Source of the DNA: Candidatus Saccharimonadota bacterium
GTDB taxonomy: Bacteria > Patescibacteriota > Saccharimonadia > Saccharimonadales > JACOTW01
DNA length: 64,000 nt
Direction: 5' to 3'
NCBI GenBank assembly: GCA_016178135.1
Contig: JACOTW010000012.1
Location: 1,064 to 65,063 of the forward strand
Positions 4,957 through 62,700 of this stretch are shown piece after piece. Made by a program: the position numbers and the translations under genes. The notes below the pieces were generated by a model, which did not search any database, was not told the origin of the DNA, and saw nothing but the letters and a program-made list of their open reading frames with translations. Position 1 is the stretch's first letter. Each line of letters starts with the position of its first letter.

Positions 4957-5424
4957 TTACATTCTGTTGCTGTTTAGAGCAATCTGACCCGTAGCCATTA
5001 ATATACATTTAGGGCGTCCATCTATGATTGGGTTTGATTCTCCTCTGTTGGTTGTGCCTGGAATATAGCGGTGCCATTCGCCTAGTAAATTAGTTTCATT
5101 ATCTTCACATACTTTTATAAGGCTTAATGCTACTGCCTCATAGACATGTCCGGCACTTTGTTCTATCTCTATCTCAGGATAAAGCAAACTAATCACCTCA
5201 CCCCAATCACGGGAATACGCTGTTAAGGCTATTTTTGACATATGACCGTATGTTTTTCCGTTGAGCCTATGACGCACAAAATTAAATAATACTTCTGTAT
5301 CTAATGGGGACGGGTTTGTAGGTACAATAATTGGAGGTAGTAAAAAGTCTGATCTCTCGTTGATCGGTATACCTTGATAGCCCAAAGTTTCGGGGTCGGG
5401 CGACGCCACTTCACGTGTGTTCAT
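4957..5424 (-). CDS. Hypothetical protein
   Basis: 155-aa ORF. No recognisable motif. Confidence 0.45.
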   Translation of the reverse strand: MNTREVASPDPETLGYQGIPINERSDFLLPPIIVPTNPSPLDTEVLFNFVRHRLNGKTYGHMSKIALTAYSRDWGEVISLLYPEIEIEQSAGHVYEAVALSLIKVCEDNETNLLGEWHRYIPGTTNRGESNPIIDGRPKCILMATGQIALNSNRM

Positions 5425-5673
5425 GTTTGCATTTCCATAGCTTTTTATAAGATGCCTATTATTCCACTATGCTCCGTTTCTAAAATGTGTCAAGTATTTA
5501 TATGGTTCATGACGTAAATTGCTTTAGAATGTCATGTTTGTCTCATTTAACTGATAACGAACATAAGGCGCAATGGTTCTAGGCCGGTATGTCCAGCCAG
5601 GATTATTACAATACGTCTCGTGCTATTTTAAAAATATAAACTCACCTGATTTAATATTGGCTTATCGACAGGG

Positions 5674-11996: not shown

Positions 11997-13408
11997 ATTC
12001 TGAACCAAACTTGCCCTTGTTTTGTGTCGCGCACGCCGATACCTTCTCCTGCAAGCCTATCACGAAGTTGGTCTGATTTTACCCAGTTTTTGTTGTCCCT
12101 TGCCTTTTGTCTTTCACTGAGGGTTAGCTTTTGGGCATCTGATATATTGCTACGATTAGTTAAGTCTAGACCCAGAATCTGGTCAATATAGTCCAATAAG
12201 TTCTTAAAATAACTTAGCTGATCTTCTTCAATTGTGAAGTGCAACATATCAGCCGTTAAGTCGCTGACTTGTTTTAGTACCTCCGGCAGATTTATGTCAT
12301 CTTCGATAGCTTTCTTGATGCTCTCAAGGTGTTTGAGAAAATCTCCTTCAACCAGACCCGACTCGCCTTTGGTTCGCGTCTGGAATACTAAGTCTGCCAT
12401 TGCTCGGATATCTTTTATACGGTTTTGGGCGGCCTCGAGGTTTGTCCAGGTGAAATTGCTTTGGCTACGATAGTGGGATTGTAGAACCATCAGGCGGAAG
12501 GCTAGCGGGTCAAGATCATTGTCCTGTATATCTTGGAGGGTGAAAAAATTATTTAGTGATTTACTCATTTTTCTGCCATCAACCAGTAGATGCTCGTTAT
12601 GGATAAATATATTCGCGAGCGTTGGGTTGGCTTTACCTGCGGTGCTTTGAGCAATCTCGTTTTCGTGATGTGGAAAAATCAAATCTACGCCTCCGGTGTG
12701 AATATCAAAAGGTTGTCCAAGCGTGTTAGCACTCATAGCCGAACACTCGATGTGCCAGCCCGGTCGGCCATCAAGTTTCTTGCCGTCCAGTGTAAAATCC
12801 CAGATTGGTTCGTCCGCTTTTCCGATTTTCCATAGCGCGAAATCATGTGGCGAATCTTTATCGTATTCATCATTTTGAATACGTGCCGAGGAAGTATTAC
12901 TGTCCGTGATATCCAGTAGCTGGCCATACTTTTTGCCACTGTCTCGATATTCTTTAATCGAAAAATACACGCCATCGTCGGCTATGTACGCGAAGCCATC
13001 GTCATGAAGTTTTGTGATCAGGGCTTTCATATCTTCAATGCGATCGGTAGCATTTATAAACTTAATGGACTCTACATCACAGCCGACGCTCCGCATATCA
13101 TCCAGAAATAGTTTAGAATATTCGGTGGTTAGTTTCTTTAGCGCTTGTTTGGGGTCGAGATTGGGGTATTTTTCTTTACTTCGCTTGATAGTTTTATCGT
13201 CTACATCAGTAAAGTTCATGACATGATCGATCTCGTAGCCACTGGCTCGCAAGGTTCGACTCAGTGTATCGGCATAGATAAAGCTAGCCAAATTACCAAT
13301 GTGTATATGATCATAAACTGTCGGGCCACAAGAATAAATCGACACCTTTTTATTATTCAGTGGCGTAAAATCTTCAATCTCTCGTATAAGTGTGTTATAT
13401 AATCTCAT
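11993..13408 (-). CDS. cysS: Cysteinyl-tRNA synthetase
   Basis: CGPTVYDHIHIGNL (HIGH) and KMSKSLNN motifs. Confidence 0.95.
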   Translation of the reverse strand: MRLYNTLIREIEDFTPLNNKKVSIYSCGPTVYDHIHIGNLASFIYADTLSRTLRASGYEIDHVMNFTDVDDKTIKRSKEKYPNLDPKQALKKLTTEYSKLFLDDMRSVGCDVESIKFINATDRIEDMKALITKLHDDGFAYIADDGVYFSIKEYRDSGKKYGQLLDITDSNTSSARIQNDEYDKDSPHDFALWKIGKADEPIWDFTLDGKKLDGRPGWHIECSAMSANTLGQPFDIHTGGVDLIFPHHENEIAQSTAGKANPTLANIFIHNEHLLVDGRKMSKSLNNFFTLQDIQDNDLDPLAFRLMVLQSHYRSQSNFTWTNLEAAQNRIKDIRAMADLVFQTRTKGESGLVEGDFLKHLESIKKAIEDDINLPEVLKQVSDLTADMLHFTIEEDQLSYFKNLLDYIDQILGLDLTNRSNISDAQKLTLSERQKARDNKNWVKSDQLRDRLAGEGIGVRDTKQGQVWFRI

Positions 13409-14580
13409 GACTTGTCTGTAATTTTATCAAGTAATTCTGTGGCGATGGTTAGGCATTCGGTTTTGACTGCTTGCGCTGTGCGACTGTCCGTGACCTTGAA
13501 GCCACTGGCGTAAACGTGCCCACCACCGCCAAAATGAGATGCCAAATCGGCCGCGATGCTGGCACCGGCATTACATCGGATTGAACCGGTAATTTTGCCG
13601 TCATTATAAACTTTCAAGACTATCGCTACTTTTACGCCTTCGGTTTGTAGCATGTCTGTTTGAATAAGTGGGGCTGGATTGTATAGCGGACTGTATTTCA
13701 TTAGTTCATCATGCCCAATACTGACTAATGCGATTCTGTCATCGCTCAATAATTCAGTTCTGTCTATCAGGGTAGCTTTGTATTTAAAAATCGTTTTGGG
13801 CATCTTGGCCTGTGCGCGACGAGCTTCCTCGAGTTTTATTCTGTTAACTCCGCCCTCTATGAGGTCGGCCATAATTCTATAGGTATTTGGCGTTGTGCCT
13901 TCGCTGGAAAGCCCCAGGGAATCTGATAGGATTGAACTAGTGATATGGGTTTTTGCCTGGAGGTTGAGCGGCCAGTTTAGCTCATCGGCCAGTTTATAAA
14001 TCACTTCGCCGGTTGCTACGGCATCATGATCATTTATGACAAGTGTAGCGTAGGTTATGTCGCACTCCACATCAGTGTGATGATCGAGTACGATTACTGG
14101 CTTGGAAGCTACGATGCTTTTGTAGCTACTGTTGTCGAGTTTCTCCAGAAGGATTGCAGCACTAGTGTCTACTATGATGCTTAAGTCGATTTTGTTCGGA
14201 ATCTCCTTACTGACTCTGTCCCAGCCGTCCAAATGACGCAAGTATTCTGGAATATTTACACCACAATACAGAAATGTTTGCTTGCCTGCGTCCCCCAGTA
14301 TTTCCTCAAGTGCCAGGGCACTTCCCAGACTATCCCCATCCGGGTTATCCGCCTGGATTATTGCAATCCGCTCTGATTCATCAACCAACTTCTTAATACC
14401 CTGGTATAGCCCCCGCAAAACAAATTCGGGGGTTTTGGAGCCGATGATCTTCGAGTCAAAAACTGGCTTTTCTGAGGGAAGCATATCATTAGATAAGGTG
14501 AGTGAGGAAAGACAGCTTTTGACCGGAGAGGGCGGTTCAAAAAGCAGTGAATTTGTTTTGCGGGGGCTATAATTATTCAT
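13405..14580 (-). CDS. DHH/DHHA1 phosphoesterase (NrnA-like) carrying an in-frame family-B element after codon 3
   Basis: DNPDGDSLGS, DHH and GGGH motifs. ATG overlaps the recR stop (ATGA). Confidence 0.8.
   Translation of the reverse strand: MNNYSPRKTNSLLFEPPSPVKSCLSSLTLSNDMLPSEKPVFDSKIIGSKTPEFVLRGLYQGIKKLVDESERIAIIQADNPDGDSLGSALALEEILGDAGKQTFLYCGVNIPEYLRHLDGWDRVSKEIPNKIDLSIIVDTSAAILLEKLDNSSYKSIVASKPVIVLDHHTDVECDITYATLVINDHDAVATGEVIYKLADELNWPLNLQAKTHITSSILSDSLGLSSEGTTPNTYRIMADLIEGGVNRIKLEEARRAQAKMPKTIFKYKATLIDRTELLSDDRIALVSIGHDELMKYSPLYNPAPLIQTDMLQTEGVKVAIVLKVYNDGKITGSIRCNAGASIAADLASHFGGGGHVYASGFKVTDSRTAQAVKTECLTIATELLDKITDKS
14405..14571 (+). mobile_element. Family-B element, copy B1 (167 bp including both TA), intragenic
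   Basis: Termini TATAGCCCCCGCAAAACAAATTC ... GAATTTGTTTTGCGGGGGCTATA. Confidence 0.9.
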
Positions 14581-15595: not shown

Positions 15596-15762
15596 TATAG
15601 CCCCCGCAAAACAAATTCGGGGGTTTTGGAGCCGATGATCTTCGAGTCAAAAACTGGCTTTTCCGAGGGAAGCATATCATTAGATAAGGTGAGTGAGGAA
15701 AGACAGCTTTTGGCCGGAGAGGGCGGTTCAAAAAGTCGTGAATTTGTTTTGCGGGGGCTATA
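15596..15762 (+). mobile_element. Family-B element, copy B2 (167 bp), intergenic
   Basis: Differs from B1 at 4 positions by manual alignment. Same orientation. Confidence 0.9.
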
Positions 15763-15765
15763 AGC

Positions 15766-18563: not shown

Positions 18564-20279
18564 CTACTCTAGCACTTCAGCGCCACCGAAGATATTGCTT
18601 ATGGTTCCCAGTGCTGTTGACGGCGCTTTGATCACTGGTTTATCAATGGCGGACTGTACATCCATGTTCTTAACAACAATACAATTTATGGAAATTTTTT
18701 TACCAGTTTGTTCATACAAAATGGATTCGATTGTCGCTTTATTTTTGGATTCGTTAAGTTGTTTTTGATGAAATGGAAAGCCGAAGCTAAGGGTCAATAC
18801 GTCATCATTTAATTCTGCGGAAGCCATACGCGCAAGGCTATATAGTGTGTTGTGTTTGTTTTTTATAGCTACTAACGCGGCCGGCCATATATTAGATTCA
18901 TGCAAAGTCTTCTCGTTCCCAGACTGGCCAACCTCGGCTGATTCGATATTTTTGTCAGATAAGATTTTTTGCGGTTCTTGTTTTTGGATGGTAGTAGTCT
19001 GCTGGGAGGTGGTTTTTTTGGTGTGGTTCTTTGGAGTTTTCTTGTGCGATACGGGTAACGTGGCTGGTGGTGCTAAGCTCGATTTATGCGAAATCTCCGC
19101 ATCCCCAGACCAACTAATCTCAAGCGGTAGCGGTCTGCCTTCTTTCGATGTAACTAAGGCGGCTACCTCTCCTTCAGTCAAACCACTATCTGCTCGAGCT
19201 GATTTAGCCTGGGAACGGGCGATTTTGCGTAAGTCCAGTGAATGATCTTCTGATTCACTTTTGGCTAGCCCAGTAGAATGCGAGGTTTTGCGTAGGTCTA
19301 GGGACTGCTTTGTTTTGGTATTCTCCAGGGCTGCTCCGATAAGCGTGATTTCCAGCGCCGAGGCTGGATCGTGAGCAGTTGGTACGGTCAGTAACTTTTC
19401 CAAGATTGAGGTAAATGCAGATGGCTCAAAAGACCATTCGCCATCCAGTAGATCATGGCGTAATTGTGCACTTAGTTGTTTGGCTATTTGACCAGGGTGA
19501 AAGCCTTGCTCGGATAGTTCGTCAAGCAGTTTAACTACTTCTTTTGCTGCACCTTCACTAACGACCTTTTTAAGTTGTGTTATAACTGCATTGGGAGCAA
19601 TTCCCAAAACTTCAATAACGTTATTCTCGCTAATATTTTTACCACTACTTGCTATTTGGTCGAGTAGGCTTATGCTATCACGGAATGATCCATCCCCGTG
19701 TTTAGCTATAAGCTCAAGAGCACCGTCGTCTATGTCAATATTTTCTGATTTGGCAATTGTGCGCAGATGTTGCGCGACTTTATGGGTTTCTATCGGTTTA
19801 AAAGTAAAACGCTGAGTTCTGCTGATTATGGTTTCCGGCAATTTGTGGGCTTCTGTGGTTGCCAAAATAAAAATAGCGTGCGCTGGTGGCTCCTCAAGCG
19901 TTTTTAAGAGAGCGTTGAAAGCTTCTCGGGTCAGCATATGTACTTCATCAATAATGTAAACTTTGTATTTCGTGCTGGTCGGGGTATTGTGTACTCGTTC
20001 ACGAATTTCTCTAATTTCATCAATTCTTCGGTTGCTCGCGGCATCAATCTCAATAATATCGAGATGCGATCTATCATCATCGTAAGGCAAATTATTAACT
20101 TCATGCGCTAAAATTCTGGCAATACTGGTTTTACCAGTGCCACGTGGTCCAGTAAATAAATAGGCGTGACTTATAGAGTTATTTTTTATGGCATTCTTGA
20201 GGGTCGTGGTGATGTGTTCCTGTCCCACTATTTCAGATAATTTCTTAGGTCGGTATTTCCGATACAATGCTTTCCCCAT
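18564..20279 (-). CDS. dnaX: DNA polymerase III gamma/tau subunit with in-frame family-A element
   Basis: YRPKKLSEIVGQEH, GPRGTGKTS, IIDEVHMLT, LLKTLEEPP. Confidence 0.9.
   Translation of the reverse strand: MGKALYRKYRPKKLSEIVGQEHITTTLKNAIKNNSISHAYLFTGPRGTGKTSIARILAHEVNNLPYDDDRSHLDIIEIDAASNRRIDEIREIRERVHNTPTSTKYKVYIIDEVHMLTREAFNALLKTLEEPPAHAIFILATTEAHKLPETIISRTQRFTFKPIETHKVAQHLRTIAKSENIDIDDGALELIAKHGDGSFRDSISLLDQIASSGKNISENNVIEVLGIAPNAVITQLKKVVSEGAAKEVVKLLDELSEQGFHPGQIAKQLSAQLRHDLLDGEWSFEPSAFTSILEKLLTVPTAHDPASALEITLIGAALENTKTKQSLDLRKTSHSTGLAKSESEDHSLDLRKIARSQAKSARADSGLTEGEVAALVTSKEGRPLPLEISWSGDAEISHKSSLAPPATLPVSHKKTPKNHTKKTTSQQTTTIQKQEPQKILSDKNIESAEVGQSGNEKTLHESNIWPAALVAIKNKHNTLYSLARMASAELNDDVLTLSFGFPFHQKQLNESKNKATIESILYEQTGKKISINCIVVKNMDVQSAIDKPVIKAPSTALGTISNIFGGAEVLE
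19078..19238 (+). mobile_element. Family-A element, copy A5, intragenic in dnaX (left terminus degenerate)
   Basis: CTCGATTTATGCGAAATCTCCGCATCCCCAGACC ... GATTTTGCGTAAGTCCAG. Confidence 0.8.
19286..19301 (+). repeat. Orphan family-A right terminus inside dnaX
   Basis: TTTTGCGTAGGTCTAG, 47 nt from A5. Translated as a second LDLRK. Confidence 0.6.
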
Positions 20280-23941: not shown

Positions 23942-24128
23942 TAGATCTCCTTTGGAGTAATTTCTAATTGATAGTTATTGTTGACATGATTCGCTTCGAC
24001 CATCACGAACCTTCAGTACCAAAAAGCCTCTGCATTACCAGAGGCTAAAACATGCTCACAAACAAAAATGTCGGCTTGCACCTCGGCGACAAATCAAGCC
24101 ACTAATGGCAGTCGCTGTCTTTGGTAAC
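23942..24128 (-). promoter_or_regulatory. Long 5' UTR of rplJ, candidate L10-leader autoregulatory RNA
   Basis: About 186 nt between the predicted promoter and the rplJ ATG. Contains hairpin GCCTCTGGTAATGCAGAGGC. The assignment rests on analogy only. Confidence 0.3.
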
Positions 24129-24134
24129 ACGGTA

Positions 24135-24163
24135 ATTCTATCTGTTAAAAAGCTTTTTGTCAA
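24135..24163 (-). promoter_or_regulatory. Sigma70-type promoter candidate for rplJ-rplL
   Basis: On the minus strand: TTGACA (24163-58), 17-nt spacer, TAGAAT (24140-35). Confidence 0.55.
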
Positions 24164-27873: not shown

Positions 27874-28875
27874 CTATATACCGGCTGTAGATACTGGAAT
27901 ACTTGGACCCATAGAGGTAGTAACGTACAGGCTTTTTAGGTAGATGCCTTTTAGGCCAGTAGGTTTGGCGGACTTAATGCTAGCCATCACTGTTTCGGCA
28001 TTTTGAGCTAATTTTTCTTTGCCAAAACTTACTTTTCCAATACCAAGATGAATTATGCCAGTGCCATCAACGCGATATTCAACGCGTCCAGCCTTGGCCT
28101 CTTTCACTGCCTTTGCTACGTCGGTGGTTACAGTACCACTTTTAGGGTTTGGCATCAGACCTTTAGGCCCAAGAATACGCGCGTATTTACCCAACTTGGC
28201 CATTACTTTAGGTGTGGCGATTAATACGTCAAAATCCATAGTTCCTTTATCTAGCTGTTGAAGGAATTCTTCACTACCAGCAATGTCGGCACCAGCCTTC
28301 TTGGCGGCTGTTACATCGTTTGCCTCACCAAATACGGCGATGCGGATATTTTTACCCGTACCAGCAGGCAAAGTAACGGTTCCGCGAATATTTTGATCTG
28401 CTTGCTTAGGATCAACACCTAGTCGTATGTGTAATTCGACAGTGGCATCGAATTTAGCAGGATTGGTTATGGTAGCTAATTCAAGAGCTTCCGGCAGTTC
28501 ATATAATTTATCTTCGATAATTTGATCATGTAGCTTTCTATAATTTTTGCTACGGCGTTCTAGGCGTGTGCGGGGTTTCTTTTGTGCTGGTTTTATTGTT
28601 GCTTTTGCCTCAACTGTTTTACGCTCTTCTTTCTCTTGCTTGGCTACCGTTTCTTGGATGGCTTTAATACTTCTTTTGCCTGATTTCGCGAGTGGCTTAT
28701 CGGTCGTAGCGGAGGGCTTACTGGACTGACTCAAAGCTCCTTCATCTCTACTGGACTTAATAACCTCGGGTGCCACTTCTTTGATTGTGGTTGATGTCTT
28801 TTTCTTGACGGCGGTTGTTGGTAGCTTACTTTTTACTTTTTTTTCGGTCATGTGCTTTATCCTTTCGTGGTTCAA
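27874..28875 (-). CDS. rplA: 50S ribosomal protein L1 with an about 105-aa Lys/Thr/Ala-rich N-terminal extension
   Basis: FDATVELHIRLGVDPKQADQNIRGTV and the C-terminal L1 core. Confidence 0.9.
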   Translation of the reverse strand: MNHERIKHMTEKKVKSKLPTTAVKKKTSTTIKEVAPEVIKSSRDEGALSQSSKPSATTDKPLAKSGKRSIKAIQETVAKQEKEERKTVEAKATIKPAQKKPRTRLERRSKNYRKLHDQIIEDKLYELPEALELATITNPAKFDATVELHIRLGVDPKQADQNIRGTVTLPAGTGKNIRIAVFGEANDVTAAKKAGADIAGSEEFLQQLDKGTMDFDVLIATPKVMAKLGKYARILGPKGLMPNPKSGTVTTDVAKAVKEAKAGRVEYRVDGTGIIHLGIGKVSFGKEKLAQNAETVMASIKSAKPTGLKGIYLKSLYVTTSMGPSIPVSTAGI

Positions 28876-30594: not shown

Positions 30595-31137
30595 TTATAC
30601 CCGTTTAACCTGCAAGCTGTCCAGTTCTACTGGAGTTTCGCGGCCGAACATGTTGACCAAGACCTTTAGCTTACCTTTTGTTGCATCAACTTCACTTATA
30701 GTACCGTCAAAACTTTTAAACGGTCCATCTGTAATACTCACAACCTCGCCAATATTAAAATCGATCTTGTGTTTGGGTTCTTCGCGACCCATACGCTTCA
30801 TAATCTTATCCATTTCATCAGTGCTAATTGGCGTTGGTTCTGATCCAGAGCCAACAAAACCAGTTACTGATGGCGTATTGCGCACAATGTACCAAGCGTC
30901 TTCACTCATTTTCATTTGAACCATTACATATCCTTGGAAAATGCGCTTTTCTACAACTTTGCGTTTACCATTTTTAACTTCTATCATTTTTTCTTTTGGC
31001 ACTAGAATTTGAAAAATTTTGTCTTTCATGTCCAGCGAATCAGTGCGCTGGCGAATAGATTCGGCGACCTTTTCTTCGTAGCCACTATATGTGTGAATGG
31101 CATACCATTGTTTTGCTATGTCGTAGCGATTTGTCAT
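30595..31137 (-). CDS. nusG: Transcription antitermination factor NusG
   Basis: WYAIHTYSGYEEKV and the KOW motif. ATG at 31137 is preceded by AAGGAG. The track start at 31167 is TTG. Confidence 0.9.
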   Translation of the reverse strand: MTNRYDIAKQWYAIHTYSGYEEKVAESIRQRTDSLDMKDKIFQILVPKEKMIEVKNGKRKVVEKRIFQGYVMVQMKMSEDAWYIVRNTPSVTGFVGSGSEPTPISTDEMDKIMKRMGREEPKHKIDFNIGEVVSITDGPFKSFDGTISEVDATKGKLKVLVNMFGRETPVELDSLQVKRV

Positions 31138-31154
31138 TAAAAAACTCCTTTTAT

Positions 31155-31297
31155 CGGATTTATGCAAAAATCTATCATTACCAGATTGAATAACTTCGAC
31201 CGCAAACAGTTTTTTTGCTTTAGATACATTTCCTTCAGATAAAACTGTTTTCGCTCGAGCTGATTAGATATGGAAAAGAGGTTGTAGCTCATTTTAA
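31155..31297 (+). repeat. Degenerate family-A copy (A7) between secE and nusG
   Basis: TCGGATTTATGCAAAAATC...CGCAAACAGTTTTTTT...CCTTCAGATAAAACTGTTTTCGCTCGAGCTGATT aligns to A4/A11. Termini are eroded. Confidence 0.5.
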
Positions 31298-33638: not shown

Positions 33639-33650
33639 GTTTTTATTATA

Positions 33651-33890
33651 CTGGGCCTGTCGCAAAATCCCTCGTTCCCAGGACGAATCAGCTCGAGCGA
33701 AAACAGTTTTGTCTGAAGGAGAGGTACCCAGGAGGTATAGTCCCCGCAAAACAAATTCGTGGGTTTTTGAAGCAATGATCTTTGAGCCAAAAACTGACTT
33801 TTCCGAGAGAGACATATCCTTAGATACGTTGAACGAGGAAAGGCGGTTTTGGGCCAAAGAGGGTGATTCGAAATTTTGCGACAGGCCCAG
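33651..33890 (-). mobile_element. Composite: family-A element (CTGTCGC subtype) carrying a nested truncated family-B element
   Basis: CTGGGCCTGTCGCAAAATCCC...GGTACCCAGGAG | TATAGTCCCCGCAAAAC...GATTCGAAA | TTTTGCGACAGGCCCAG. Direct TATA at 33647-50 and 33891-94. Confidence 0.85.
33736..33873 (+). mobile_element. Family-B subtype B' (right terminus missing), copy B3, nested in A
   Basis: 138 nt. Differs from B4 at 2 positions by manual alignment. Confidence 0.85.
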
Positions 33891-33978
33891 TATAGGACCT
33901 TCGTACTTTGTCGCCAATTCCAGAGTAATCCTGCAGCCCTCTAGGATTGGTCTGGGGTGATGAAAAAGTAGGAAAAAC

Positions 33979-34641: not shown

Positions 34642-34701
34642 TCCTATTAAATTATAACAATTAGACAAAATTTGCAAAGTTTTGTTTCGGGTGATTATAG
34701 A

Positions 34702-35462: not shown

Positions 35463-36152
35463 GTGAGCAGTTATAGCCCCCGCAAAACAAATTCGTGGGT
35501 TTTTGAAGCAATGATCTTTGAGTCAAAAACTGACTTTTCCGAGAGAGACATATCCTTAGATACGTTGAACGAGGAAAGGCGGTTTTGGGCCAAAGAGGGT
35601 GATTCGAAAAGAGCTTATTATCTAACACAGTTTGACGCGCTGGAAGCTCTAGACAACGGTGTTGGTAATTGTTTTTCGAAAGCTATGGTTGCATGTGGAA
35701 TAATAGTATTAAAATATGCGGTTGAGCCGTCAATAGTTTATAAAAAGTCGATACATGGCTCTAAAGATACTGCGATTGATAAGCCTACGGACTCAAAAAC
35801 AGGCAAAAAAATCGCGCATGTGGTTGTAGCCGTACCCGGTTCAAATCCAACTACAGATAAATCTATTCCGGGCTTGAATTTTGGAGTAGCAGTTTCCCAA
35901 GGAGTTAAATTTACCCAAACAGATGCAGGTGAAATACTACAGGATTATAATGAACCCGGAGAATTTGTACGTGTTAATGAAACGGGCACAGTGATTGCTA
36001 CTGAAATTGCTACTGAACGGGGTATGTTTGGTGATAGGTGGCGGGATATTGCTCCAGATTATTTACAAGCTTTGGACAGACCTGACCTGGACATAGATCT
36101 CTTAATTGGTAAGCTCAAAGAATCATACCCAGATGATCAAGTTGCGGCATAG
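35463..36152 (+). CDS. Hypothetical protein. The first about 49 codons derive from family-B element B4. Possible Cys-His peptidase-like core.
   Basis: GTG start at 35463. No alternative ATG before residue 75. GNCFSKAMVAC ... AHVVVAV noted, but this is a weak motif. Confidence 0.4.
   Translation: MSSYSPRKTNSWVFEAMIFESKTDFSERDISLDTLNEERRFWAKEGDSKRAYYLTQFDALEALDNGVGNCFSKAMVACGIIVLKYAVEPSIVYKKSIHGSKDTAIDKPTDSKTGKKIAHVVVAVPGSNPTTDKSIPGLNFGVAVSQGVKFTQTDAGEILQDYNEPGEFVRVNETGTVIATEIATERGMFGDRWRDIAPDYLQALDRPDLDIDLLIGKLKESYPDDQVAA
35472..35610 (+). mobile_element. Family-B subtype B' copy B4 (right terminus missing)
   Basis: TATAGCCCCCGCAAAACAAATTCGTGGG...GGGTGATTCGAAA. Confidence 0.85.
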
Positions 36153-40331: not shown

Positions 40332-40526
40332 GTGCCGTATGCACCATACGAACAAGTGCCTGAGCGTGTCTGGAGGTTTGATGGAACTACAGATGTGCAT
40401 GCAGTTACAGGTAAGGGATACACATCACGTAACCGTTTATTGGTATACGCGGATGGTGAAGATACTAAGTTCACCCAAATTTTTGAAGACGAGTACGACC
40501 CGGCTCCAGAGACATCGCAGATATAG
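40332..40526 (+). CDS. Hypothetical protein (start uncertain; frame open from 40251)
   Basis: 64-aa ORF from GTG. Acidic C-terminus. Confidence 0.35.
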   Translation: MPYAPYEQVPERVWRFDGTTDVHAVTGKGYTSRNRLLVYADGEDTKFTQIFEDEYDPAPETSQI

Positions 40527-40544
40527 CCCCCGCAAAACAAATTC
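40522..40544 (+). repeat. Orphan family-B left terminus
   Basis: TATAGCCCCCGCAAAACAAATTC, 23/23 identical to the B1/B2 terminus. No matching right end nearby. Confidence 0.8.
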
Positions 40545-42251: not shown

Positions 42252-43121
42252 CTACAGACTGACCATAAGTGAACTTAATAATAGCTTAATATTGGGTTTG
42301 TGTTTAAGCGATGTTTCGGCTTTAAAAAGTTCTTGCATTCGCAAATGCCAGCGTTTGCTCAAAGTCAAGTCGCCTTTTTCGATAGATTGAATCAGCGCCG
42401 CTCGGCTAACTTGTTTTAGTGCGTAGAAAAGCGAGGTAAGTTCTTCTTTTTTACCAACAAGACTATCGACTTCTATCAGTCGCTGATACGTGGTTGATCC
42501 CAGGAGCTTTTTAGCCAGATTCACATGTTGGTTCAATATGTTTTCTGTGTTTTGAGTCAAGAGGCTGTGCATTAGTCCAATCTGCCCACTACTTACGTGG
42601 TATGCTCGAACGATTTCTTGATTGGTAATTCCCTGCTTGCTAAAAAAATCAATAAGCTCTGTTTTTGATGGAGCGAGTAAACGGGCGTGCTGTACCCTTG
42701 AATATATCGTACTACGCAAACCACGTTCGCCATTTTCGGTTAGGATGATTCTTGTATCAAGTGGCGGCTCTTCTAGTATTTTTAAAAGAGCATTTTGAGC
42801 TTCTATGGTCATACTTTCTGAATTTTCTATTACAATAACCCGACGAATCGTTGCTTTGCCCGATGTTTTAAGTTGAAGAAAATGCCGCAAATCTCGTACA
42901 GCATCGATGCCAAGTGAATTTTCACCCCCCCGTAAACGCATGAATCCTGGATTGATAATAAGCTTGTCGAGCTTGACATCAAGTAATCTACCGGCAAGAT
43001 TTAATGCTACGAATTTTTTGCCCGCGCCATTTGGACCACTGATGAGCAGGGCGTGTGCTTGGCTTTTAATGAATTGCTCAAGTTGTGCGGAAACTGTTTT
43101 ATTTATTAATAAGTCCATCAC
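42252..43121 (-). CDS. holB: DNA polymerase III delta' subunit
   Basis: LLISGPNGAGKKF, AQNALLKILEEPP. Confidence 0.75.
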   Translation of the reverse strand: MMDLLINKTVSAQLEQFIKSQAHALLISGPNGAGKKFVALNLAGRLLDVKLDKLIINPGFMRLRGGENSLGIDAVRDLRHFLQLKTSGKATIRRVIVIENSESMTIEAQNALLKILEEPPLDTRIILTENGERGLRSTIYSRVQHARLLAPSKTELIDFFSKQGITNQEIVRAYHVSSGQIGLMHSLLTQNTENILNQHVNLAKKLLGSTTYQRLIEVDSLVGKKEELTSLFYALKQVSRAALIQSIEKGDLTLSKRWHLRMQELFKAETSLKHKPNIKLLLSSLMVSL

Positions 43122-44188
43122 GAATCCAGTAAATTAAAAAATTCTTCGGGTACTGGCACCTGAAATGTCATGTGCTTACCATTTTTCAGTGTAAGCTCTA
43201 GTTTTTCGGCGTGAAGGTATAGCCGATCAGCGGACTGGCCGTCGTATATCGTATCCCCTACAATAGGATAGCCTAGCTTTTTTAAGTGCACGCGTAGTTG
43301 ATGGGTGTGCTCAGTGCGCGGTTTTAGTTCAACTAAATCATAATTTTTTCCTGATTTAACAACATTGTATTCCGTTTGTGCCGTTTTGCCATTTATGCCA
43401 GTTCTAAATGTCTGTGGATGCTTAGGATTCCGCTCTATAGGCATATCAATAATCGCATGCGCAGGTATAATATGGCCAAAAACCACTGCTTTATAAGTTT
43501 TATATACCTTACGTGTAGAGAATTGCTTTTGAAGCCAGCTAAGCGAAGTATTGTTTTTGGCGCAAATAATAACCCCAGAGGTCGCCCTATCCAGACGATG
43601 AACAATCCCCTCTCGAGTTTGCATGGAAGATTTCTGCGAGTCCGATAAACTGGACTTACCCAAAGCTCCCTCATCCCCAGACCGACTAACCTCGGCTACA
43701 AACAGTTTTTCCTCTCTCGATGTACCTTCAGGTACCTCTCCTTCAGACAAAACTGTTTTCGCTCGAGCTGATTCGCCCTGGGAACGAGGGATTTTGCGTA
43801 AGTCCAGTAAACTAGTATTTTGTTGTCTAGCATGTTTATTCAAGTGATCGAATAGCCAAGTTGCGATGGTTGCTTCGGGATTGAACGCTCCTTTGCTGTG
43901 CGTCAACAACCCAGCTGGTTTATTTATAACAACACAGTCGTCATCTTCGTACAAAACCGGCAATTCTATTCTGGGTATATCTTCAGTTGTATTTGGATCA
44001 AAATCAATGTTAATTTGATCTTCTAACCTTAGTTTATATCCGGTTTTTTTGATCTCGTCTCCTACAGTTATAAACCCTCGGTTGCATAATTTTTGAACAT
44101 GCGCCCTACTGATTTGAGGTAATTTGTTATGTACAAAAACATCAAGCCTCTCTCCTGCAGAGGTTTTAGGCACCGTTACTTGTATCAT
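43118..44188 (-). CDS. rluD: RluD-type 23S rRNA pseudouridine synthase (S4 domain + RluA core) with in-frame family-A element
   Basis: N-terminal S4 domain (ERLDVFV...). Catalytic HRLDRATSGVIICAKN. Confidence 0.85.
   Translation of the reverse strand: MIQVTVPKTSAGERLDVFVHNKLPQISRAHVQKLCNRGFITVGDEIKKTGYKLRLEDQINIDFDPNTTEDIPRIELPVLYEDDDCVVINKPAGLLTHSKGAFNPEATIATWLFDHLNKHARQQNTSLLDLRKIPRSQGESARAKTVLSEGEVPEGTSREEKLFVAEVSRSGDEGALGKSSLSDSQKSSMQTREGIVHRLDRATSGVIICAKNNTSLSWLQKQFSTRKVYKTYKAVVFGHIIPAHAIIDMPIERNPKHPQTFRTGINGKTAQTEYNVVKSGKNYDLVELKPRTEHTHQLRVHLKKLGYPIVGDTIYDGQSADRLYLHAEKLELTLKNGKHMTFQVPVPEEFFNLLDS
43650..43807 (+). mobile_element. Family-A element, copy A11 (158 bp), intragenic in rluD
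   Basis: CTGGACTTACCCAAAG...ATTTTGCGTAAGTCCAG. Direct TAAA at 43646-49 and 43808-11. Confidence 0.9.
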
Positions 44189-44189
44189 G

Positions 44190-45275
44190 CTACGTACGCA
44201 ATCCTACGGCTTTTTGAACTTTAGCGAGTATTGTTTCAGCAATTTTACACATAGCGGTCTCGCTCATTGCCAACTTTTGCTCCAATGCTTTAGTATCAAC
44301 CATTTCTAATTTTGTCTGAAAATCCTCTAAAAATTGCCCCGTTAATATCGCGACGGCTTCTTTGAGTGGACCGTATTGCTTGGAACCGATAAATTCATGC
44401 TTTCTTCCGCCGAATAGCTCTAAAATATCCAATAAATTACTTATACCTGGCTGGGTAGTATAGTCATATTTGATCTCGCCTAGACTATCAGTAGTTGCGG
44501 ATTGAATTTTTTTGTGAGCTTGTTCCGGCGTATCATTTAAGAATATAACTCCCTTGCCCGATGCATCTGATTTACTCATTTTTTTAGCGGGATCAAGTAA
44601 ATCGCGTATACGTAGACCTTGGTCTTTGCCGAAAAATTCATGCTGCTCTTTAGCTGATTTCGGTACGATAAATAATTCACCAAACTTACTATTCATTCTT
44701 TCGGCAATATCACGTGTAAATTCCAGGTGTTGTTTTTGGTCATCTCCAACCGGTACGTATATAGCCCCATACAAAAGTATATCCGCAGCCATAAGTACAG
44801 GATAATCGAATAGCCCCATACTTACATGATTTTGTTGAAACGCATTCTTTGGATTAGCAGAAAAGGAATCTTGTCGAGCTGATTCACCCTGAGAACGAGG
44901 GATTTTGCGTAAGTCCAGTTTATCCTTAAACTGGGTCATGCGAGACATCTCTCCAAATCCAGTAAAACTATTCAGAATTATAGTAAGCTCACTATGTGCC
45001 GGCACATAACTTTGACGATAAATGTGTATATTTGGGTTGTCCAGCGGCAAACCAGCGGCTGCAAATACCCGCAGGTTATTCATAATGCCAGCCTGAAGTT
45101 GGCTGTGATCAATCGGTGTAGTAAAACTATGTAAGTCCGGAACGAACAAATTGATTTGATAATCATCGGCATGCCGTCGAGCCATATCAATTATAGGCAA
45201 AAGCGCCCCCAGATAGTTGCCTATATGTAGGTCATTATTAGCCCTAAGTCCGGTCAAAATCACTGGCTTATTCAT
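44190..45275 (-). CDS. trpS: Tryptophanyl-tRNA synthetase with a 15-codon family-A remnant
   Basis: HIGNYLGA (HIGH), KMSKS, YPVLMAADILLY. ATG at 45275 is chosen because upstream residues are translated repeat A13. Confidence 0.9.
   Translation of the reverse strand: MNKPVILTGLRANNDLHIGNYLGALLPIIDMARRHADDYQINLFVPDLHSFTTPIDHSQLQAGIMNNLRVFAAAGLPLDNPNIHIYRQSYVPAHSELTIILNSFTGFGEMSRMTQFKDKLDLRKIPRSQGESARQDSFSANPKNAFQQNHVSMGLFDYPVLMAADILLYGAIYVPVGDDQKQHLEFTRDIAERMNSKFGELFIVPKSAKEQHEFFGKDQGLRIRDLLDPAKKMSKSDASGKGVIFLNDTPEQAHKKIQSATTDSLGEIKYDYTTQPGISNLLDILELFGGRKHEFIGSKQYGPLKEAVAILTGQFLEDFQTKLEMVDTKALEQKLAMSETAMCKIAETILAKVQKAVGLRT
44874..44918 (+). repeat. Family-A right-arm remnant (45 nt) inside trpS
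   Basis: TCGAGCTGATTCACCCTGAGAACGAGGGATTTTGCGTAAGTCCAG followed by TTTA. Confidence 0.85.
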
Positions 45276-45327
45276 TGGTAATAGTATACACGAGTTACGG
45301 CGACAGCTAAAAACGATTGATTGTATA

Positions 45328-45484
45328 TAGGACTTACGCACTTTGTTACCAATGCCAGAGTGTAGCTGGGTGAGCGAAAACGGTTCAGGTTCTGGAGGGG
45401 TAGCCATAGCTACACCGAGAGAACATGGGCCGTTTGTAGCCACATAGGTTAAGTCTGGTGTGGTAAGAAAGTGCGTAAGTCCTA
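45328..45484 (-). mobile_element. Family-A element, copy A13 (157 bp), between rpsI and trpS
   Basis: TAGGACTTACGCACTTT ... AAAGTGCGTAAGTCCTA. Flanked by TATA on both sides. Confidence 0.8.
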
Positions 45485-48995: not shown

Positions 48996-49382
48996 TTACG
49001 TCTTTGATGCTGATTTAGGTTGTGAACCACCAATAGCGGTTTTTTTACCGCGCTTAGTGCGAGCATTTGTACGAGTACGTTGTCCACGCACCGGTAAACT
49101 AGCTTTATGTCTGATTCCTCGGTAGCTATTAATGTCTTTGAGGCGCTTAATATTCGTGCTGACAATGCGTTGTAACTCACCCTCGACGGTATACTTTTCA
49201 TTAATTAAATCTTGGATGCGGGAAATTTCATTGTCAGTAAGATTTTTAACACGTACTGTTGGCTCAATTTTAGCTGAAGTTAGGATATCCGCACTGGATT
49301 TTGGCCCAATACCATACACATAAGTCAAGGCTACATGGACTTGCTTGCCGTCTGGAATAACTACGCCTGAAATTCTAGCCAC
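48996..49382 (-). CDS. rpsM: 30S ribosomal protein S13 (GTG start)
   Basis: ARISGVVIPDGKQVHVALTYVYGIG... Confidence 0.95.
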   Translation of the reverse strand: MARISGVVIPDGKQVHVALTYVYGIGPKSSADILTSAKIEPTVRVKNLTDNEISRIQDLINEKYTVEGELQRIVSTNIKRLKDINSYRGIRHKASLPVRGQRTRTNARTKRGKKTAIGGSQPKSASKT

Positions 49383-49408
49383 GAGATACCTCTTTTCGAG
49401 AGCTTAAA

Positions 49409-49551
49409 CTGGATTTACGCAAAACCGCTCGTTTCCAAAGTGATTCAGACCGACCCAAAACAGTTTTACCTGAAGGTACATCAAAAGAATAAAAACCGTT
49501 TGTAGCCGAACTGAATCGGCCTGGGGATGAGGGAGTTTTGGGTAAGTTCAG
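49409..49551 (-). mobile_element. Family-A element, copy A14 (143 bp, eroded), between rpmJ and rpsM
   Basis: CTGGATTTACGCAAAACCGCTCG...GGGAGTTTTGGGTAAGTTCAG. Confidence 0.8.
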
Positions 49552-49608
49552 CATACGACTAAATCCGACCGCTGTATTAGCTGCATTATATGTTCCATGC
49601 ATAAAATA

Positions 49609-52993: not shown

Positions 52994-53533
52994 TTATTTA
53001 TCCTTACCTGACTTACCACTCTTACGAATTATTCGTTCGCCAACATATTTTATGCCTTTACCTTTATAAGGTTCAGGTTTTTTTAATGCTCGGATTTCGG
53101 CAGCAACTTGTCCTACCTGTTGCTTATTTATACCAGTTATAGTAATGATGTTCTGCTCTACCAAAGCCCCAACATCATCAGGAATCTTGTATATAACATC
53201 GTGAGAAAAACCAAGATTAAGCTTAAGGTTAGTGCCTGCCGGAGCTACACGATAACCAACTCCGTTTAGTTCAAGCTGCTTAGAAAAACCAGATGAAACA
53301 CCGACCACCATATTATCAACAAGCGAACGCATCAACCCATGTTTGGATCGTGTAACCGGTTCGTCATTGGCGCGTGTTACAAGGAGTTGATCACCATCCT
53401 GTTTGACTGTAATGTCAGGCATAGTAAATTGTACCAAACTACCCTTGGGGCCTGTAACTGTAATATTTTCTGGATCAACAGTAACTGTCACGCCGGTCGG
53501 TAGGGTGATCGGCTGTTTTCCTATACGACTCAT
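52994..53533 (-). CDS. rplF: 50S ribosomal protein L6
   Basis: MSRIGKQPITLPTGVTVTV... Confidence 0.95.
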   Translation of the reverse strand: MSRIGKQPITLPTGVTVTVDPENITVTGPKGSLVQFTMPDITVKQDGDQLLVTRANDEPVTRSKHGLMRSLVDNMVVGVSSGFSKQLELNGVGYRVAPAGTNLKLNLGFSHDVIYKIPDDVGALVEQNIITITGINKQQVGQVAAEIRALKKPEPYKGKGIKYVGERIIRKSGKSGKDK

Positions 53534-53575
53534 AACAAGAAACCTCCGATTGCGGTAGTAATTTGTAGATATAAA

Positions 53576-53733
53576 CTGGACTTACGCAAAATCGCCCGTT
53601 CCCAGGCTAAATCAGCTCGAGTTGGGAGTGGTTTGACTGAAGGAGAGGTAGCCATAGCTACATCGAGAGAAGACAAACCGCTATCAGCCGAGATGAATTG
53701 GTCTGGGGATGGGGGAGCTTTGCGTAAGTCGAG
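53576..53733 (-). mobile_element. Family-A element, copy A15 (158 bp), between rpsH and rplF
   Basis: CTGGACTTACGCAAAATCGCCCG...GAGCTTTGCGTAAGTCGAG. Direct TAAA at 53572-75 and 53734-37. Confidence 0.9.
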
Positions 53734-53811
53734 TAAAGTATTATCACAAGCCTCCATAAGACCTGTCCTAACCATTCTATATTCTACGTTATATGTTGCT
53801 TTACTCATCTT

Positions 53812-57185: not shown

Positions 57186-57818
57186 TTAAGCAACCTCGCC
57201 TTTATAAATCCAGACCTTAACGCCAATCAATCCAGCGCCAGGATATTTTGCTGTTGCACTATAAAAATCAATATCAGCCCGAACTGTATGTAACGGAACA
57301 CTTCCCTGAACTTCTTTTTCGCGGCGCGACATCTCCGCGCCATTTAATCGACCAGCGATTTCGATACGTACACCCTTTGCGCCGGCGCGCATAGTAGCAG
57401 CTGCTCCGGCTTTCATGGCTCGACGAAAAGAAATACGGCGTTCAATTTGATGGGCAATGTTTTCGGCAACTAATTTGGCATAAAGCTCTGGCTTTTTAAG
57501 TTCCTCAATGTTCACGCGAACTGGTACAGCGTAAATCTTTTCAAAGGCTACTTTTAGTTCCTGTGCGCCACTTCCGCCTCGACCAATAACCACGCCAGCC
57601 TTCGCTGTGCTGATAGTTATAGATACCAAGTTAGGGGATCGTTCAATATCAACCTTATTAATAGCTGCACGGCTGCCAAGCTTATTCTGTATTAGGCGTC
57701 GTACGGCAAGGTCTTGCGTCAAAAATTGAGCATAATTACGCTTATTGGCAAACCACTTACTACGCCAGTCTTTGTTAAGCTGTAGTCGCATTGAGATTGG
57801 ATTTACTTTTTGTCCCAT
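57186..57818 (-). CDS. rpsC: 30S ribosomal protein S3
   Basis: [25 protein letters not shown] domain. Confidence 0.95.
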
Positions 57819-57848
57819 TATACGATTCCCCTAGAATTATTGAATAGA

Positions 57849-57991
57849 CTTGACTTACGCAAAATCGCTCGTTCCCAAGGCGAATTAGCTCGAGCGAAAA
57901 TAGTTTTGTCTGAAGATACATCGAGATATGAAAAACTGTTTGCAAGCGAGGTTATTCGGTCTTCGGATAGGACAACTTTGTATGAGTCCAG
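57849..57991 (-). mobile_element. Family-A element, copy A16 (143 bp), between rplV and rpsC
   Basis: CTTGACTTACGCAAAATCGCTCG...CTTTGTATGAGTCCAG. Direct TAGA at 57845-48 and 57992-95. Confidence 0.85.
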
Positions 57992-58077
57992 TAGAGGCCT
58001 ATGGGATAGCCCCCAGCGAATTACCAGATACGAAGACCTGTTATCTATTACCTGTAATCTGTAATCTGATAATTTCA

Positions 58078-58452
58078 TTATTTTGTCTCCTTGGCGACAA
58101 TAGGTTTTTTGGGTGTGCGCATTTCGCCGTCAACAATTACGCGAATATGAGCGCTACGACGCTGAAACGGCAGGGCGCGGCCTTGGGCTGCTGGACGAAA
58201 ACGCTTCAAACTTGGACCAGGTGTAACTTCTATAGAAACAATTTGTAATGTTTCGATCTTAAAATTATGATTATGATCAGCGTTTGCCCGAACACTTTCA
58301 ATAACCTTTTTTACTGGCAAAGCGGCACGGCGCGGAGTATGTTCAAGAATCGTTATCGCATCAGCTACACTACGGCCACGAACAAGTGAAGCTACAATTC
58401 CAAGCTTACGCGGACTCATACGAACACCTTTAGCAACAGCCTTAACTGGCAT
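58078..58452 (-). CDS. rplV: 50S ribosomal protein L22
   Basis: VRMSPRKLGIVASLVRGRSVADAITILEHTP. Confidence 0.95.
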   Translation of the reverse strand: MPVKAVAKGVRMSPRKLGIVASLVRGRSVADAITILEHTPRRAALPVKKVIESVRANADHNHNFKIETLQIVSIEVTPGPSLKRFRPAAQGRALPFQRRSAHIRVIVDGEMRTPKKPIVAKETK

Positions 58453-61433: not shown

Positions 61434-61739
61434 TTAGAAATTAATATATATCCCGAATGGCATCCAGAAGCCTACTAACATCGCAATAAGAAGCACGGCA
61501 AATTCTATTTTGCGATCAATCTGAAAATGTTCATGACCGGCAAAAACAAGACCTGCCAACATGCCCACCGGAAGAGGAACCTGTATATCAGCTCCCCTGG
61601 TAACCTTGAGCCATAACGACCCAAGAATCAGATAAAAGACAAGTTTTAAAAAGAAGACACTGTCCAGCTCTTTATTGGTCGCTTGAGTTGCTTTCTTAAT
61701 CTGTATCTTCCGTTGAGCTTTGGTTTTTGATTTAGGCAT
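61434..61739 (-). CDS. Small membrane protein (3 TM), hypothetical
   Basis: 101-aa ORF with a basic N-terminus and then hydrophobic helices. Confidence 0.45.
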   Translation of the reverse strand: MPKSKTKAQRKIQIKKATQATNKELDSVFFLKLVFYLILGSLWLKVTRGADIQVPLPVGMLAGLVFAGHEHFQIDRKIEFAVLLIAMLVGFWMPFGIYINF

Positions 61740-61758: not shown

Positions 61759-62235
61759 TTATTTGATTATGCCACGTGTTTTGACAACGTCAAAAATCTT
61801 GTGAAATTGTGAATGCATTGGCGTTGGTATTGTATCGGCATTGAACCAGCCAATTTCAGATATCTTATGTGGCTCTTTATTGATAACAGTAGATGGGTCA
61901 ATACGCACTGAGTGTAGCAAGTATACCCAGTGGGTATTGTTGCCGTTGTGCTCCCTATGTGCATCACCTGCAGTTATAAACTCAATCTCTAAGGGGTCAG
62001 TCCCCAGTTCTTCCAGAACTTCACGTCTTACAGCATCCTCCAGCAATTCTCCCATTTCTACTGCTCCTCCGCCGATATCCCATCGGCCTTGTTCATCACG
62101 CGCTTTTGGACCGCGTTTTTGTAGCAACAGGTTGCCCTGGCCGTCATGCACAACAAAACACACAGTCACACCAATATGATCTATACCTCTGCGGTGGTCT
62201 GTTTCCTCATCTGCAACTTTTACCTTCCTAGTCAT
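61759..62235 (-). CDS. NUDIX hydrolase
   Basis: [24 protein letters not shown] fits the Nudix box GX5EX7REUXEEXGU. Confidence 0.85.
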
Positions 62236-62237
62236 GG

Positions 62238-62579
62238 CTACATCTTGATTTCGGCATCACAGCCAGCTGGAAGAGATAGATTCATGAGCGAATCAATTGT
62301 CTTTGGAGTAGGTTCCAGAACATCAATCAGACGTTTATGTACGCGCATCTCGAATTGTTCACGACCTTTTTTGTAGACATGTGGGCTTTTAACAACCGTA
62401 TAAAGGCTGCGTTGAGTTGGTAGCGGAATCGGTCCGGAAATAACGGCTCCGGTTCGCAGAGCGGTATCGACGATTTGCTTCGCAGCCTGATCAATAACCT
62501 TATGGTCATAGGCCTTTAGACGAATACGAATACGTTGCTTAACTTCCTTGACGGGTGCGTTTTTTTTGGCTTCAGCCAT
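62238..62579 (-). CDS. rpsJ: 30S ribosomal protein S10
   Basis: [26 protein letters not shown] at 62579 lies 7 nt after AGGAG. The track start at 62585 is TTG. Confidence 0.95.
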
Positions 62580-62700
62580 AATCAATCTCCTGGTTGTGAT
62601 GTAATATCTCTACAAACTTATTGAGAAGTATTGTAGCGACTTTTAGTCATCACGATTAGTTTATGGCTTTATTTTACACCATTCTTAGAACTAAGAGAAG

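Follow-up and report, generated by a model that had tools for sequence, protein, structure and literature searches.

The spacer between the ribosomal protein genes rplV (L22) and rpsC (S3), in a 64,000-nucleotide stretch of Candidatus Saccharimonadota contig JACOTW010000012.1 (the window, meaning that whole stretch), holds a family A MITE (a miniature transposable element with inverted repeats) nested in an older cassette of heptamer repeats, and is filled exactly by an 86-codon open reading frame (ORF) that the original prediction, a first reading of the same DNA, had not mentioned. We consider it probable that the MITE is a translation-transparent insertion which has retained the translational coupling of the two genes, with a layered history at the junction and the bridging ORF serving as a relay between them. 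The minus strand of the window (43% GC) carries the tuf-S10-spc-alpha ribosomal gene cluster, and a scan with its S3 protein places the window in the Saccharibacteria (TM7, Saccharimonadales), the best matches being metagenome-assembled genome OFTM59 (86% identity) and CP025011 (83%). The identical L22 protein is found on seven public contigs, three of which, each several kb long, align with the window at 99.7-100% identity, and NCBI annotations bearing the locus tags HY003_ and HYS01_ belong to the window's lineage.

That the spacer measures 259 nt (57819..58077), where a few nucleotides are usual, had been claimed in the original prediction and agrees both with the gene coordinates and with the relatives: in 31 of 35 Saccharibacteria relatives the rplV-rpsC junction is -1 to +3 nt, mostly a TAATG overlap. 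Genomes without family A do not conserve the spacer, conservation there being the finding that the same prediction had named as evidence against itself. Beyond the species, the nearest L22 clusters (five, only 80-83% identical) include four that were looked up, all with a direct overlap of 1 nt. Direct-overlap relatives share ...AAGGAGACnAAnTAATGGGnCAA, with the rpsC Shine-Dalgarno (SD) motif inside the final rplV codons, and the context ...AAGGAGACnAAnTAATGGG... is common to them and to the window, where it stands in front of the bridging ORF. The ancestral SD motif, AAGGAG, is found in the last rplV codons of the window (58087..58092), 8 nt ahead of TAATG. The window retains GCCAAGGAGACAAAATAATG, its ATG now starting the bridging ORF; 260 nt downstream comes a second ATAATG, with rpsC. 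The point at which the cassette was inserted therefore lies directly behind the ancestral start codon. An origin of the spacer by tandem duplication predicts a peptide with an S3-like start and an L22-like end, and was rejected on inspection, as the peptide has neither.

The mobile element in the junction is a copy of family A, a small (143-161 bp), multi-copy element without a transposase gene, and the predicted 143-bp copy with a TAGA duplication at 57849..57991 was borne out by profile search (nhmmer E = 5e-33) and by the TAGA on both sides. Its termini, CTTGACTTACGCAAAAT... and ...TTTGTATGAGTCCAG, correspond to the inverted consensus termini CTGGACTTACGCAAAAT... and ...TTTGCGTAAGTCCAG, and the 15-nt gap that sets it apart from longer copies is also present in the copy at 49409..49551. 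A 4-bp TNNA duplication flanks 9 of 12 window copies and most metagenome copies, with TAAA, TCTA, TTTA and TATA found around others. A metagenome scan with the 17-nt family A terminus returned 120 loci, 31 of them with true copies. Family A copies are of mobile origin, as shown by at least 16 copies in the 64-kb window, their inverted termini and TNNA duplications, long hairpins and the 31 metagenome loci. The original prediction had counted the rplV-rpsC copy as the second independent hit in the S10/spc superoperon; it is one of three within the S10/spc/alpha cluster, the others lying in rpsH-rplF (53576..53733) and rpmJ-rpsM (49409..49551), and a fourth copy lies between secE and nusG. Family A was found in none of 80 related ribosomal loci.

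No transposase that could belong to an autonomous partner was found in the metagenome scan with the 17-mer terminus. A candidate partner, an ORF just inside the 17-mer at eighteen loci, is an acyl-CoA dehydrogenase by Pfam, holding the 17-mer by coincidence, and was dropped; CTGGACTTACGCAAAAT is a conserved coding stretch of this widespread gene (L105, L127, L130, L144, L200, L201 and others), which explains part of the scan matches without a true copy. Locus L116, with two inverted 17-mers, was set aside as a fold-back assembly artefact. At L160 (779-897), a 119-bp element combines the family A 17-nt termini with an unrelated interior, which suggests that one transposase mobilises several non-autonomous families.

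The frame design of family A is regular. A canonical copy of 158 bp comes to 162 with its duplication and a short-subfamily copy of 143 bp to 147, both totals divisible by three, and most full-length window copies are free of stops in one frame per strand (five carry a stop in one of the two open frames, and on the reverse strand the 160-bp variant at 34700 has no frame open from end to end). The element being a palindrome, the peptides read on both strands start with LDLRK and finish with LRKSS. Among 27 distinct full-length metagenome copies, which include several subfamilies with very different interiors, the forward frame is open in 23 and the reverse in 22, length plus 4 is a multiple of three in 23, and the remaining four frames usually hold 1-6 stops. 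Copies lie in frame inside dnaX (residues 348-401) and inside an RluA/D-type pseudouridine synthase, between its VVNKPAGL and HRLD motifs, where alignment to the solved RluA leaves about 74 extra residues; open frames of at least 150 codons enclose 8 of the 31 metagenome copies. Element-derived peptides were found for one orientation in only 34 clusters of 5.8 billion proteins and for the other in 72 of 1.84 billion representatives. The majority are short "hypothetical proteins", and those that carry a name all stem from bins of Saccharibacteria or Patescibacteria.

Other genes of the window also contain family A sequence. At 18564-20279, 43118-44188 and 44190-45443 lie dnaX and the RluA/D-type synthase with their in-frame copies, together with a class I Tyr/Trp-tRNA synthetase gene overlapped by a 52-nt fragment and another copy. 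The rplA ORF (27874-28875, 333 residues) contains the L1 domain from residue 139 only, and its long N-terminal extension, with a TTG start, holds a partial family A copy (28719..28786); the extension is probably an over-extended ORF or repeat-derived.

Together, the MITE and one copy of the duplication add 147 nt, or 49 codons, to the spacer, and their excision leaves an intact 37-codon ORF, MKLSDYRLQVIDNRSSYLVIRWGLSHRPLFNNSRGIV, with both overlaps kept; thus the insertion entered an existing bridging ORF without breaking it. The ORF survived because one frame per strand of family A contains no stop and because element and duplication together add up to a multiple of three nucleotides. Gene callers predict the 86-codon ORF on every contig of the species, four independent ones among them, and it has a good SD motif (AAGGAG) and an ATG, as might be expected of a functional small protein such as a ribosome-associated factor. 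We regard such a function as highly improbable: 50 of the 86 residues (about 28-77) are encoded by the duplication and the MITE, the product matches no Pfam family, a search of 5.8 billion proteins related it solely to further short ORFs that run through copies of this element, and bridging ORFs at other junctions and in relatives differ from it in sequence. Among strains 99.7% identical there is no single-nucleotide polymorphism in the spacer, which leaves a polymorphism test of selection on the ORF without power.

The rest of the spacer, 112 nt once the MITE and one duplication copy are removed, was described in the original prediction as repeat debris, in part resembling the terminus of a second family, B. 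It is instead an older, separate junction cassette, with a heptamer array at one end and an SD/TAATG module at the other, and not debris of family A or B. The heptamers claimed at 58052..58073 were recovered by Tandem Repeats Finder (period 7, 3.0 copies, 93% matches, score 35); two more decayed units stretch the array to 58038, and in the gene direction it begins directly after ATGAA. Self-similarity within the spacer is highest at lag 7 (17/21), followed by lag 14 (15), with all other lags at 11 or less, and lag 7 is also the top lag in four other spacers of the window's cluster. The spacer finishes with CTAGGGGAATCGTATAATG in the gene direction, and its 3' module, GGGGAATCGTATAATG, comprises an SD-like motif and the second TAATG. 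In the minimum-energy fold AUCUGGUAAUU is the pairing partner of the array, but the spacer as a whole has no greater stability than shuffled sequence; relatives have clear inverted arrays. As to family B, the 18-mer GATAGCCCCCAGCGAATT at 58005..58022 has just the 9-mer ATAGCCCCC in common with its terminus, and a profile of four B copies had no match there, not even at E <= 100 with the spacer searched by itself; the solo B end at 40522..40544 was detected with the same profile. A family B remnant in the spacer is therefore unsupported.

Family B itself, likewise palindromic, measures about 168 bp and has termini TATAGCCCCCGCAAAACAAATTC (copies at 14405-14572, 15596-15763, 33736-33903 and 35472-35639) and an interior similar to that of family A. 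One B copy is nested in a family A copy (33649..33915), and in two ORFs, 13405..14580 (a DHH-family protein) and 35463..36152, the N-terminal part is made in frame by a B copy.

Comparable cassettes occur without a MITE, with clear versions in five related genomes. The genome has a second one in the rplC-rplD spacer, with heptamers TTATCAG GATACAG AATACAG and an encoded peptide whose start, MSLSGYRIQSIN, is like MKLSDYRLQVIDN of the rplV-rpsC spacer. Across 34 Saccharibacteria genomes, strong lag-7 periodicity is present in 14 of 55 expanded S10/spc spacers and in none at any other lag from 3 to 13. Multi-copy cassettes in the related genomes L026, L035, L001 and L006 share one order, namely upstream stop/ATG, heptamer array, inverted complementary array, GCGACYGAAAGGAG (SD) and TAATG, and in every one of them an ORF spans the distance between upstream stop and downstream start. 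They are located at 5356-5477, 6630-6751, 7364-7482 and 9447-9544 in L026, at 1220-1344 in L006 and in S10/spc spacers of L035 and L001; their 7-nt arrays differ in sequence between loci. Targeted nhmmer on six spacers gave collinear matches to the L026/L006 cassette: its left arm aligned in register with the window's array (E = 0.007), and its end, GGGAGAATCGCATAATG, with the window's end module (E = 0.18). On these alignments the non-MITE spacer is likely, but not proven, to be homologous to the cassettes of relatives. A protein search for cassette ORFs gave one match only, ORFs of fewer than 40 residues being rarely in the database.

The proposed history has three layers. The first would be a one-base TAATG overlap of rplV and rpsC, with the rpsC SD motif AAGGAG in the final rplV codons. 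A cassette of heptamer array, short hairpin region and 3' module would then have been inserted right after the ancestral ATG, supplying a new SD-like motif and a second TAATG, so that the old SD and ATG would open a 37-codon ORF ending on the new rpsC start. Finally, a family A MITE (143 bp plus 4-bp TAGA) would have entered the middle of the cassette, extending the ORF from 37 to 86 codons. On the resulting transcript, ribosomes finishing rplV would restart at the overlapping ATG, translate cassette and MITE, stop on the rpsC ATG and restart there, relaying the coupling over 259 nt while keeping the inserted palindrome unfolded and ribosome-covered. We infer that the 86-codon ORF is translated and that its translation matters for rpsC expression; the bridging peptide itself is probably functionless. 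Whether rpsC translation depends on sequence made by the insertion had been raised in the original prediction, and the answer is divided. The insertion did not create the rpsC start signals, since both of these, GGGG and TAATG, belong to the older cassette and are separated from the MITE by no fewer than 23 nt, but any termination-reinitiation coupling must now cross the MITE.

Bridging of expanded junctions is not random. A bridge was defined as an ORF starting no more than 10 nt from the upstream stop, with an open frame and a stop on the downstream start; for junctions with a MITE, the null kept the MITE and shuffled the flanks. Seven of the 11 expanded junctions of the ribosomal cluster are bridged, against 0.97 expected (P = 4e-7), including the MITE-free spacers rplC-rplD, rplX-rplE, rpsK-rpsD and rpsQ-rplN, and family A copies are crossed at rpsH-rplF, rpmJ-rpsM and secE-nusG, where the true nusG start is the ATG at 31137 (Table 1). 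Relatives are bridged likewise, in all five L026/L006 cassette copies and in spacers of L001, L035 and L006. These results bear on the alternative that MITE and cassette are neutral passengers, selfish or junk DNA tolerated through rpsC's own ribosome-binding site, with the bridging ORF a by-product of the open frame that has no role in expression. Such an explanation draws on the SD-like GGGG ahead of rpsC, on the clear GGAGG just before the downstream start in relatives' cassettes, on the four expanded junctions that have no bridge, and on the ease with which short flanks are bridged through the open frame of the element by itself (null 0.5 at secE-nusG). At rplV-rpsC, though, flanks of 82 and 26 nt must also be open, in phase and overlap-ended, for which the probability is 0.004, and the same pattern recurs at the other bridged junctions and in the MITE-free cassettes of five other genomes. 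Overlaps of exactly -1 or -4 at the 3' junctions are moreover the geometry of termination-reinitiation (PMC12548453). We therefore consider passenger status unlikely, although it is the most serious competitor of the relay.

Several observations weigh against the relay with its layered history. rpsC has an SD-like GGGG of its own (57828..57831), 9 nt before its ATG, and could start without the ORF. Four expanded junctions (rplO-secY, secY-infA, rpoA-rplQ and infA-rpmJ) have no bridge, and the bridges at secE-nusG (null 0.5) and rpsQ-rplN (null 0.45) are uninformative. An empty-site allele was not found, as same-species contigs (99.7-100% identity) all carry the insert and the nearest other species lack the whole spacer. 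The homology of the non-MITE spacer to the L026/L006 cassettes is weak and, searched window-wide, not significant (E = 2.2). In the mRNA sense the 57849..57991 copy folds at -32.5 kcal/mol (z -1.6), its hairpin being largely decayed, so that keeping it unfolded may no longer matter.

This decay bears equally on a role at the RNA level, in which the palindrome would uncouple the distal S10-operon genes from within the polycistronic mRNA, whether as processing site, stabiliser, attenuator or terminator, and so resemble co-transcribed Correia or repetitive extragenic palindromic (REP) elements. Canonical family A copies do form very stable hairpins (-80 to -100 kcal/mol, z -9 to -15), copies are by position transcribed within operons, and in cyanobacteria an influence on transcript stability has been suggested for heptamer hairpins that lie between co-transcribed genes (PMC2670836). 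However, neither the mRNA-sense fold of this copy nor that of the whole spacer (z = -0.29) is better than shuffled sequence, and all three ribosomal-cluster copies stand in the orientation with the weaker RNA hairpin. On the gene strand of the spacer there is no promoter-like or terminator-like site, counts being near shuffle expectation, and Rfam has no match in 57700..58200 at E <= 1. Given the weak fold, the weaker-hairpin orientation and these two negatives, a structural RNA role for the rplV-rpsC copy is unlikely, and as an account of the junction as a whole we rate RNA-level action as very unlikely.

Table 1. Features of the rplV-rpsC junction and of comparable junctions in the window
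Feature	Coordinates	Strand	Basis and remarks
rplV (ribosomal protein L22)	58078..58452	-	ORF and Pfam Ribosomal_L22
rpsC (ribosomal protein S3)	57186..57818	-	ORF; Pfam KH_2 and Ribosomal_S3_C on the identical gene in L081
86-codon bridging (relay) ORF	57818..58078	-	ATG overlaps rplV stop (TAATG); TAA overlaps rpsC ATG (TAATG)
Heptamer array	58038..58073	-	Gene strand ATTATCAG ATTACAG ATTACAG GTAATAG ATAACAG; residues 3-14 of bridging ORF
Middle part of cassette	57996..58037	-	RNA fold; array-hairpin partner AUCUGGUAAUU, small GGGGGCUA/UAGGCCUC hairpin, 18-mer of the original prediction
Target-site duplication TAGA, copy 2	57992..57995		
Family A MITE copy, 143-bp subfamily without 15-nt apical stem	57849..57991	.	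nhmmer; aligned with 12 other copies
Target-site duplication TAGA, copy 1	57845..57848		
3' module of cassette	57819..57844	-	Gene strand TTCAATAATTCTAGGGGAATCGTATA, then ATG; resembles L026 cassette ends GGGAGAATCGCATAATG
rplC-rplD spacer, second MITE-free heptamer cassette of the genome	60569..60626	-	Bridged by 20-codon ORF MSLSGYRIQSINVNTTERGL
Sister 92-codon bridging ORF, rpsH-rplF	53530..53808	-	Through family A copy 53576..53733; starts 3 nt past rpsH stop, ATGA overlap with rplF; null p = 0.009
Sister 75-codon bridging ORF, rpmJ-rpsM	49375..49602	-	Through family A copy 49409..49551; null p = 0.038
Sister 51-codon bridging ORF, secE-nusG	31137..31292	-	Through truncated family A copy 31155..31281; ATGA at start, TAATG at end

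Each ingredient of the relay has a precedent in another lineage. Rickettsia palindromic elements (RPEs) are described, in the account given in PMC10969869, as palindromic repeats of about 150 bp with an open frame that enter unrelated essential genes in frame and add a segment of peptide without destroying the host protein (Ogata et al. 2000). Family A is like them in its open frame and its in-frame copies in dnaX and the RluA/D-type synthase, but has clear inverted termini and a 4-bp TNNA duplication that counts in the multiple-of-three rule, is open on both strands and also occurs between genes as a bridging ORF; its host phylum is Saccharibacteria, and this is resemblance only, host and GC content making RPE membership unlikely. 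Mycobacterial interspersed repetitive units (MIRUs) are, in the description in PMC12548453, short repeats between operon genes at the start codon, with an ORF coupled to the downstream gene by a stop/start overlap and little effect on expression (Supply et al. 1997). The rplV-rpsC junction shares with MIRUs, so far as that description goes, a cassette placed right after the ancestral ATG that brings its own TAATG, and shares a position between co-oriented operon genes with a TAATG at both ends of the ORF, comparable at three other junctions. MIRUs differ in being 40-100-bp units, often in tandem arrays of variable number, and are not known to have inverted termini or a target duplication, whereas the window's bridge crosses one MITE copy set within a heptamer cassette, in another host and with no sequence similarity. 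No 40-100-bp tandem units were found at the spacer, which has a single MITE copy and so is not a MIRU in the strict sense.

Short tandemly repeated repetitive (STRR) sequences in cyanobacteria are tandem 7-bp repeats, capable of forming hairpins, between co-transcribed genes (such as hupS-hupL), for which transcript stability or translational coupling has been proposed (PMC2670836). The heptamer arrays in the window spacer and in 14 of 55 expanded spacers of related Saccharibacteria match them as tandem 7-bp repeats between operon genes, but belong to another phylum, follow the stop directly, lie within a bridging ORF and have a conserved SD/TAATG end module, and their heptamer sequence varies between loci. 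The 7-bp architecture of the cyanobacterial type is thus now documented in an unrelated phylum. Neisseria Correia elements and enterobacterial repetitive intergenic consensus (ERIC) sequences are non-autonomous, measure about 100-170 bp, have inverted termini and short duplications, are abundant in transcription units and have mainly been assigned roles in RNA processing, RNA stability or promoter activity. Family A resembles them in size class, inverted termini, short duplications and position within transcription units; to our knowledge, neither a frame-preserving design nor relay ORFs in ribosomal operons have been described for Correia or ERIC. ORFs of ERIC elements are covered in PMC10969869. 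Full-text literature searches on Saccharibacteria and the candidate phyla radiation brought up no account of MITEs, of repeats in frame or of heptamer cassettes. RPEs, MIRUs and STRRs thus each offer a precedent for one ingredient; what appears to be undescribed is their combination, the lineage of the host and a design readable on two strands in multiples of three.

The genomes of bacteria of the candidate phyla radiation are tiny and densely packed, and overlaps between genes are frequent. In the window, a non-autonomous family is present at about one copy per 4 kb, even in essential genes and in the most conserved operon of the cell, and the evident reason that family A is tolerated in so compact a genome lies in its readability on both strands and in the whole codons that its copies contribute. 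In-frame landing between ribosomal genes suggests a way for selfish DNA to become established in very compact genomes while doing little damage, and the junction offers a testable case both of its persistence under extreme compaction and of coupling relayed over hundreds of nucleotides by a throw-away ORF. More tentatively, and with somewhat more doubt than confidence on our part, Saccharibacteria may host a guild of translation-transparent mobile elements, comprising a MITE superfamily, stop-free on two strands and a multiple of three in length with the 4-bp duplication, whose copies could land in genes or at their junctions and leave ribosomes running, and heptamer cassettes that target start codons at stop/start overlaps and bring their own SD/TAATG; between them the two would convert overlaps to relay ORFs. 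If so, the readable design would be selected at the level of the element and not merely filtered by the host. For annotation, the repeat is the source of dozens of "hypothetical proteins" (45-93 residues) in these genomes, and the insertions in dnaX, the pseudouridine synthase and other genes are to be recognised as repeat-derived.

Other features of these ribosomal loci were noted. A conserved element of about 75 nt, GGGAAAAGAGCAGCC.GAGC..GATTCATTCC..C.GCGCGATGAGAAAAACCG.AGGTTTGTCTCAT, recurs in ribosomal spacers of L002 (rplC-rplD, rplX-rplE), L011 (rpmC-rpsQ) and L012 (rplW-rplB, rpsQ-rplN, rplE-rpsZ) and looks like a structured RNA; Rfam at gathering scores gave no match in five related loci, this element included. 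Two more distant Saccharibacteria, L028 and L031, have about 1.9 kb between rpsH and rplF, which implies a gene-sized insertion in the spc operon. The genes rpsJ and rplC are normally adjacent; in the window a NUDIX hydrolase gene (61759..62235) and an unassigned 101-residue ORF (61434..61739) lie between rpsJ (62238..62585) and rplC. A ribosomal protein L10 leader (Rfam RF00557, 51 bits) is located upstream of rplJ on the minus strand (24011-24142).

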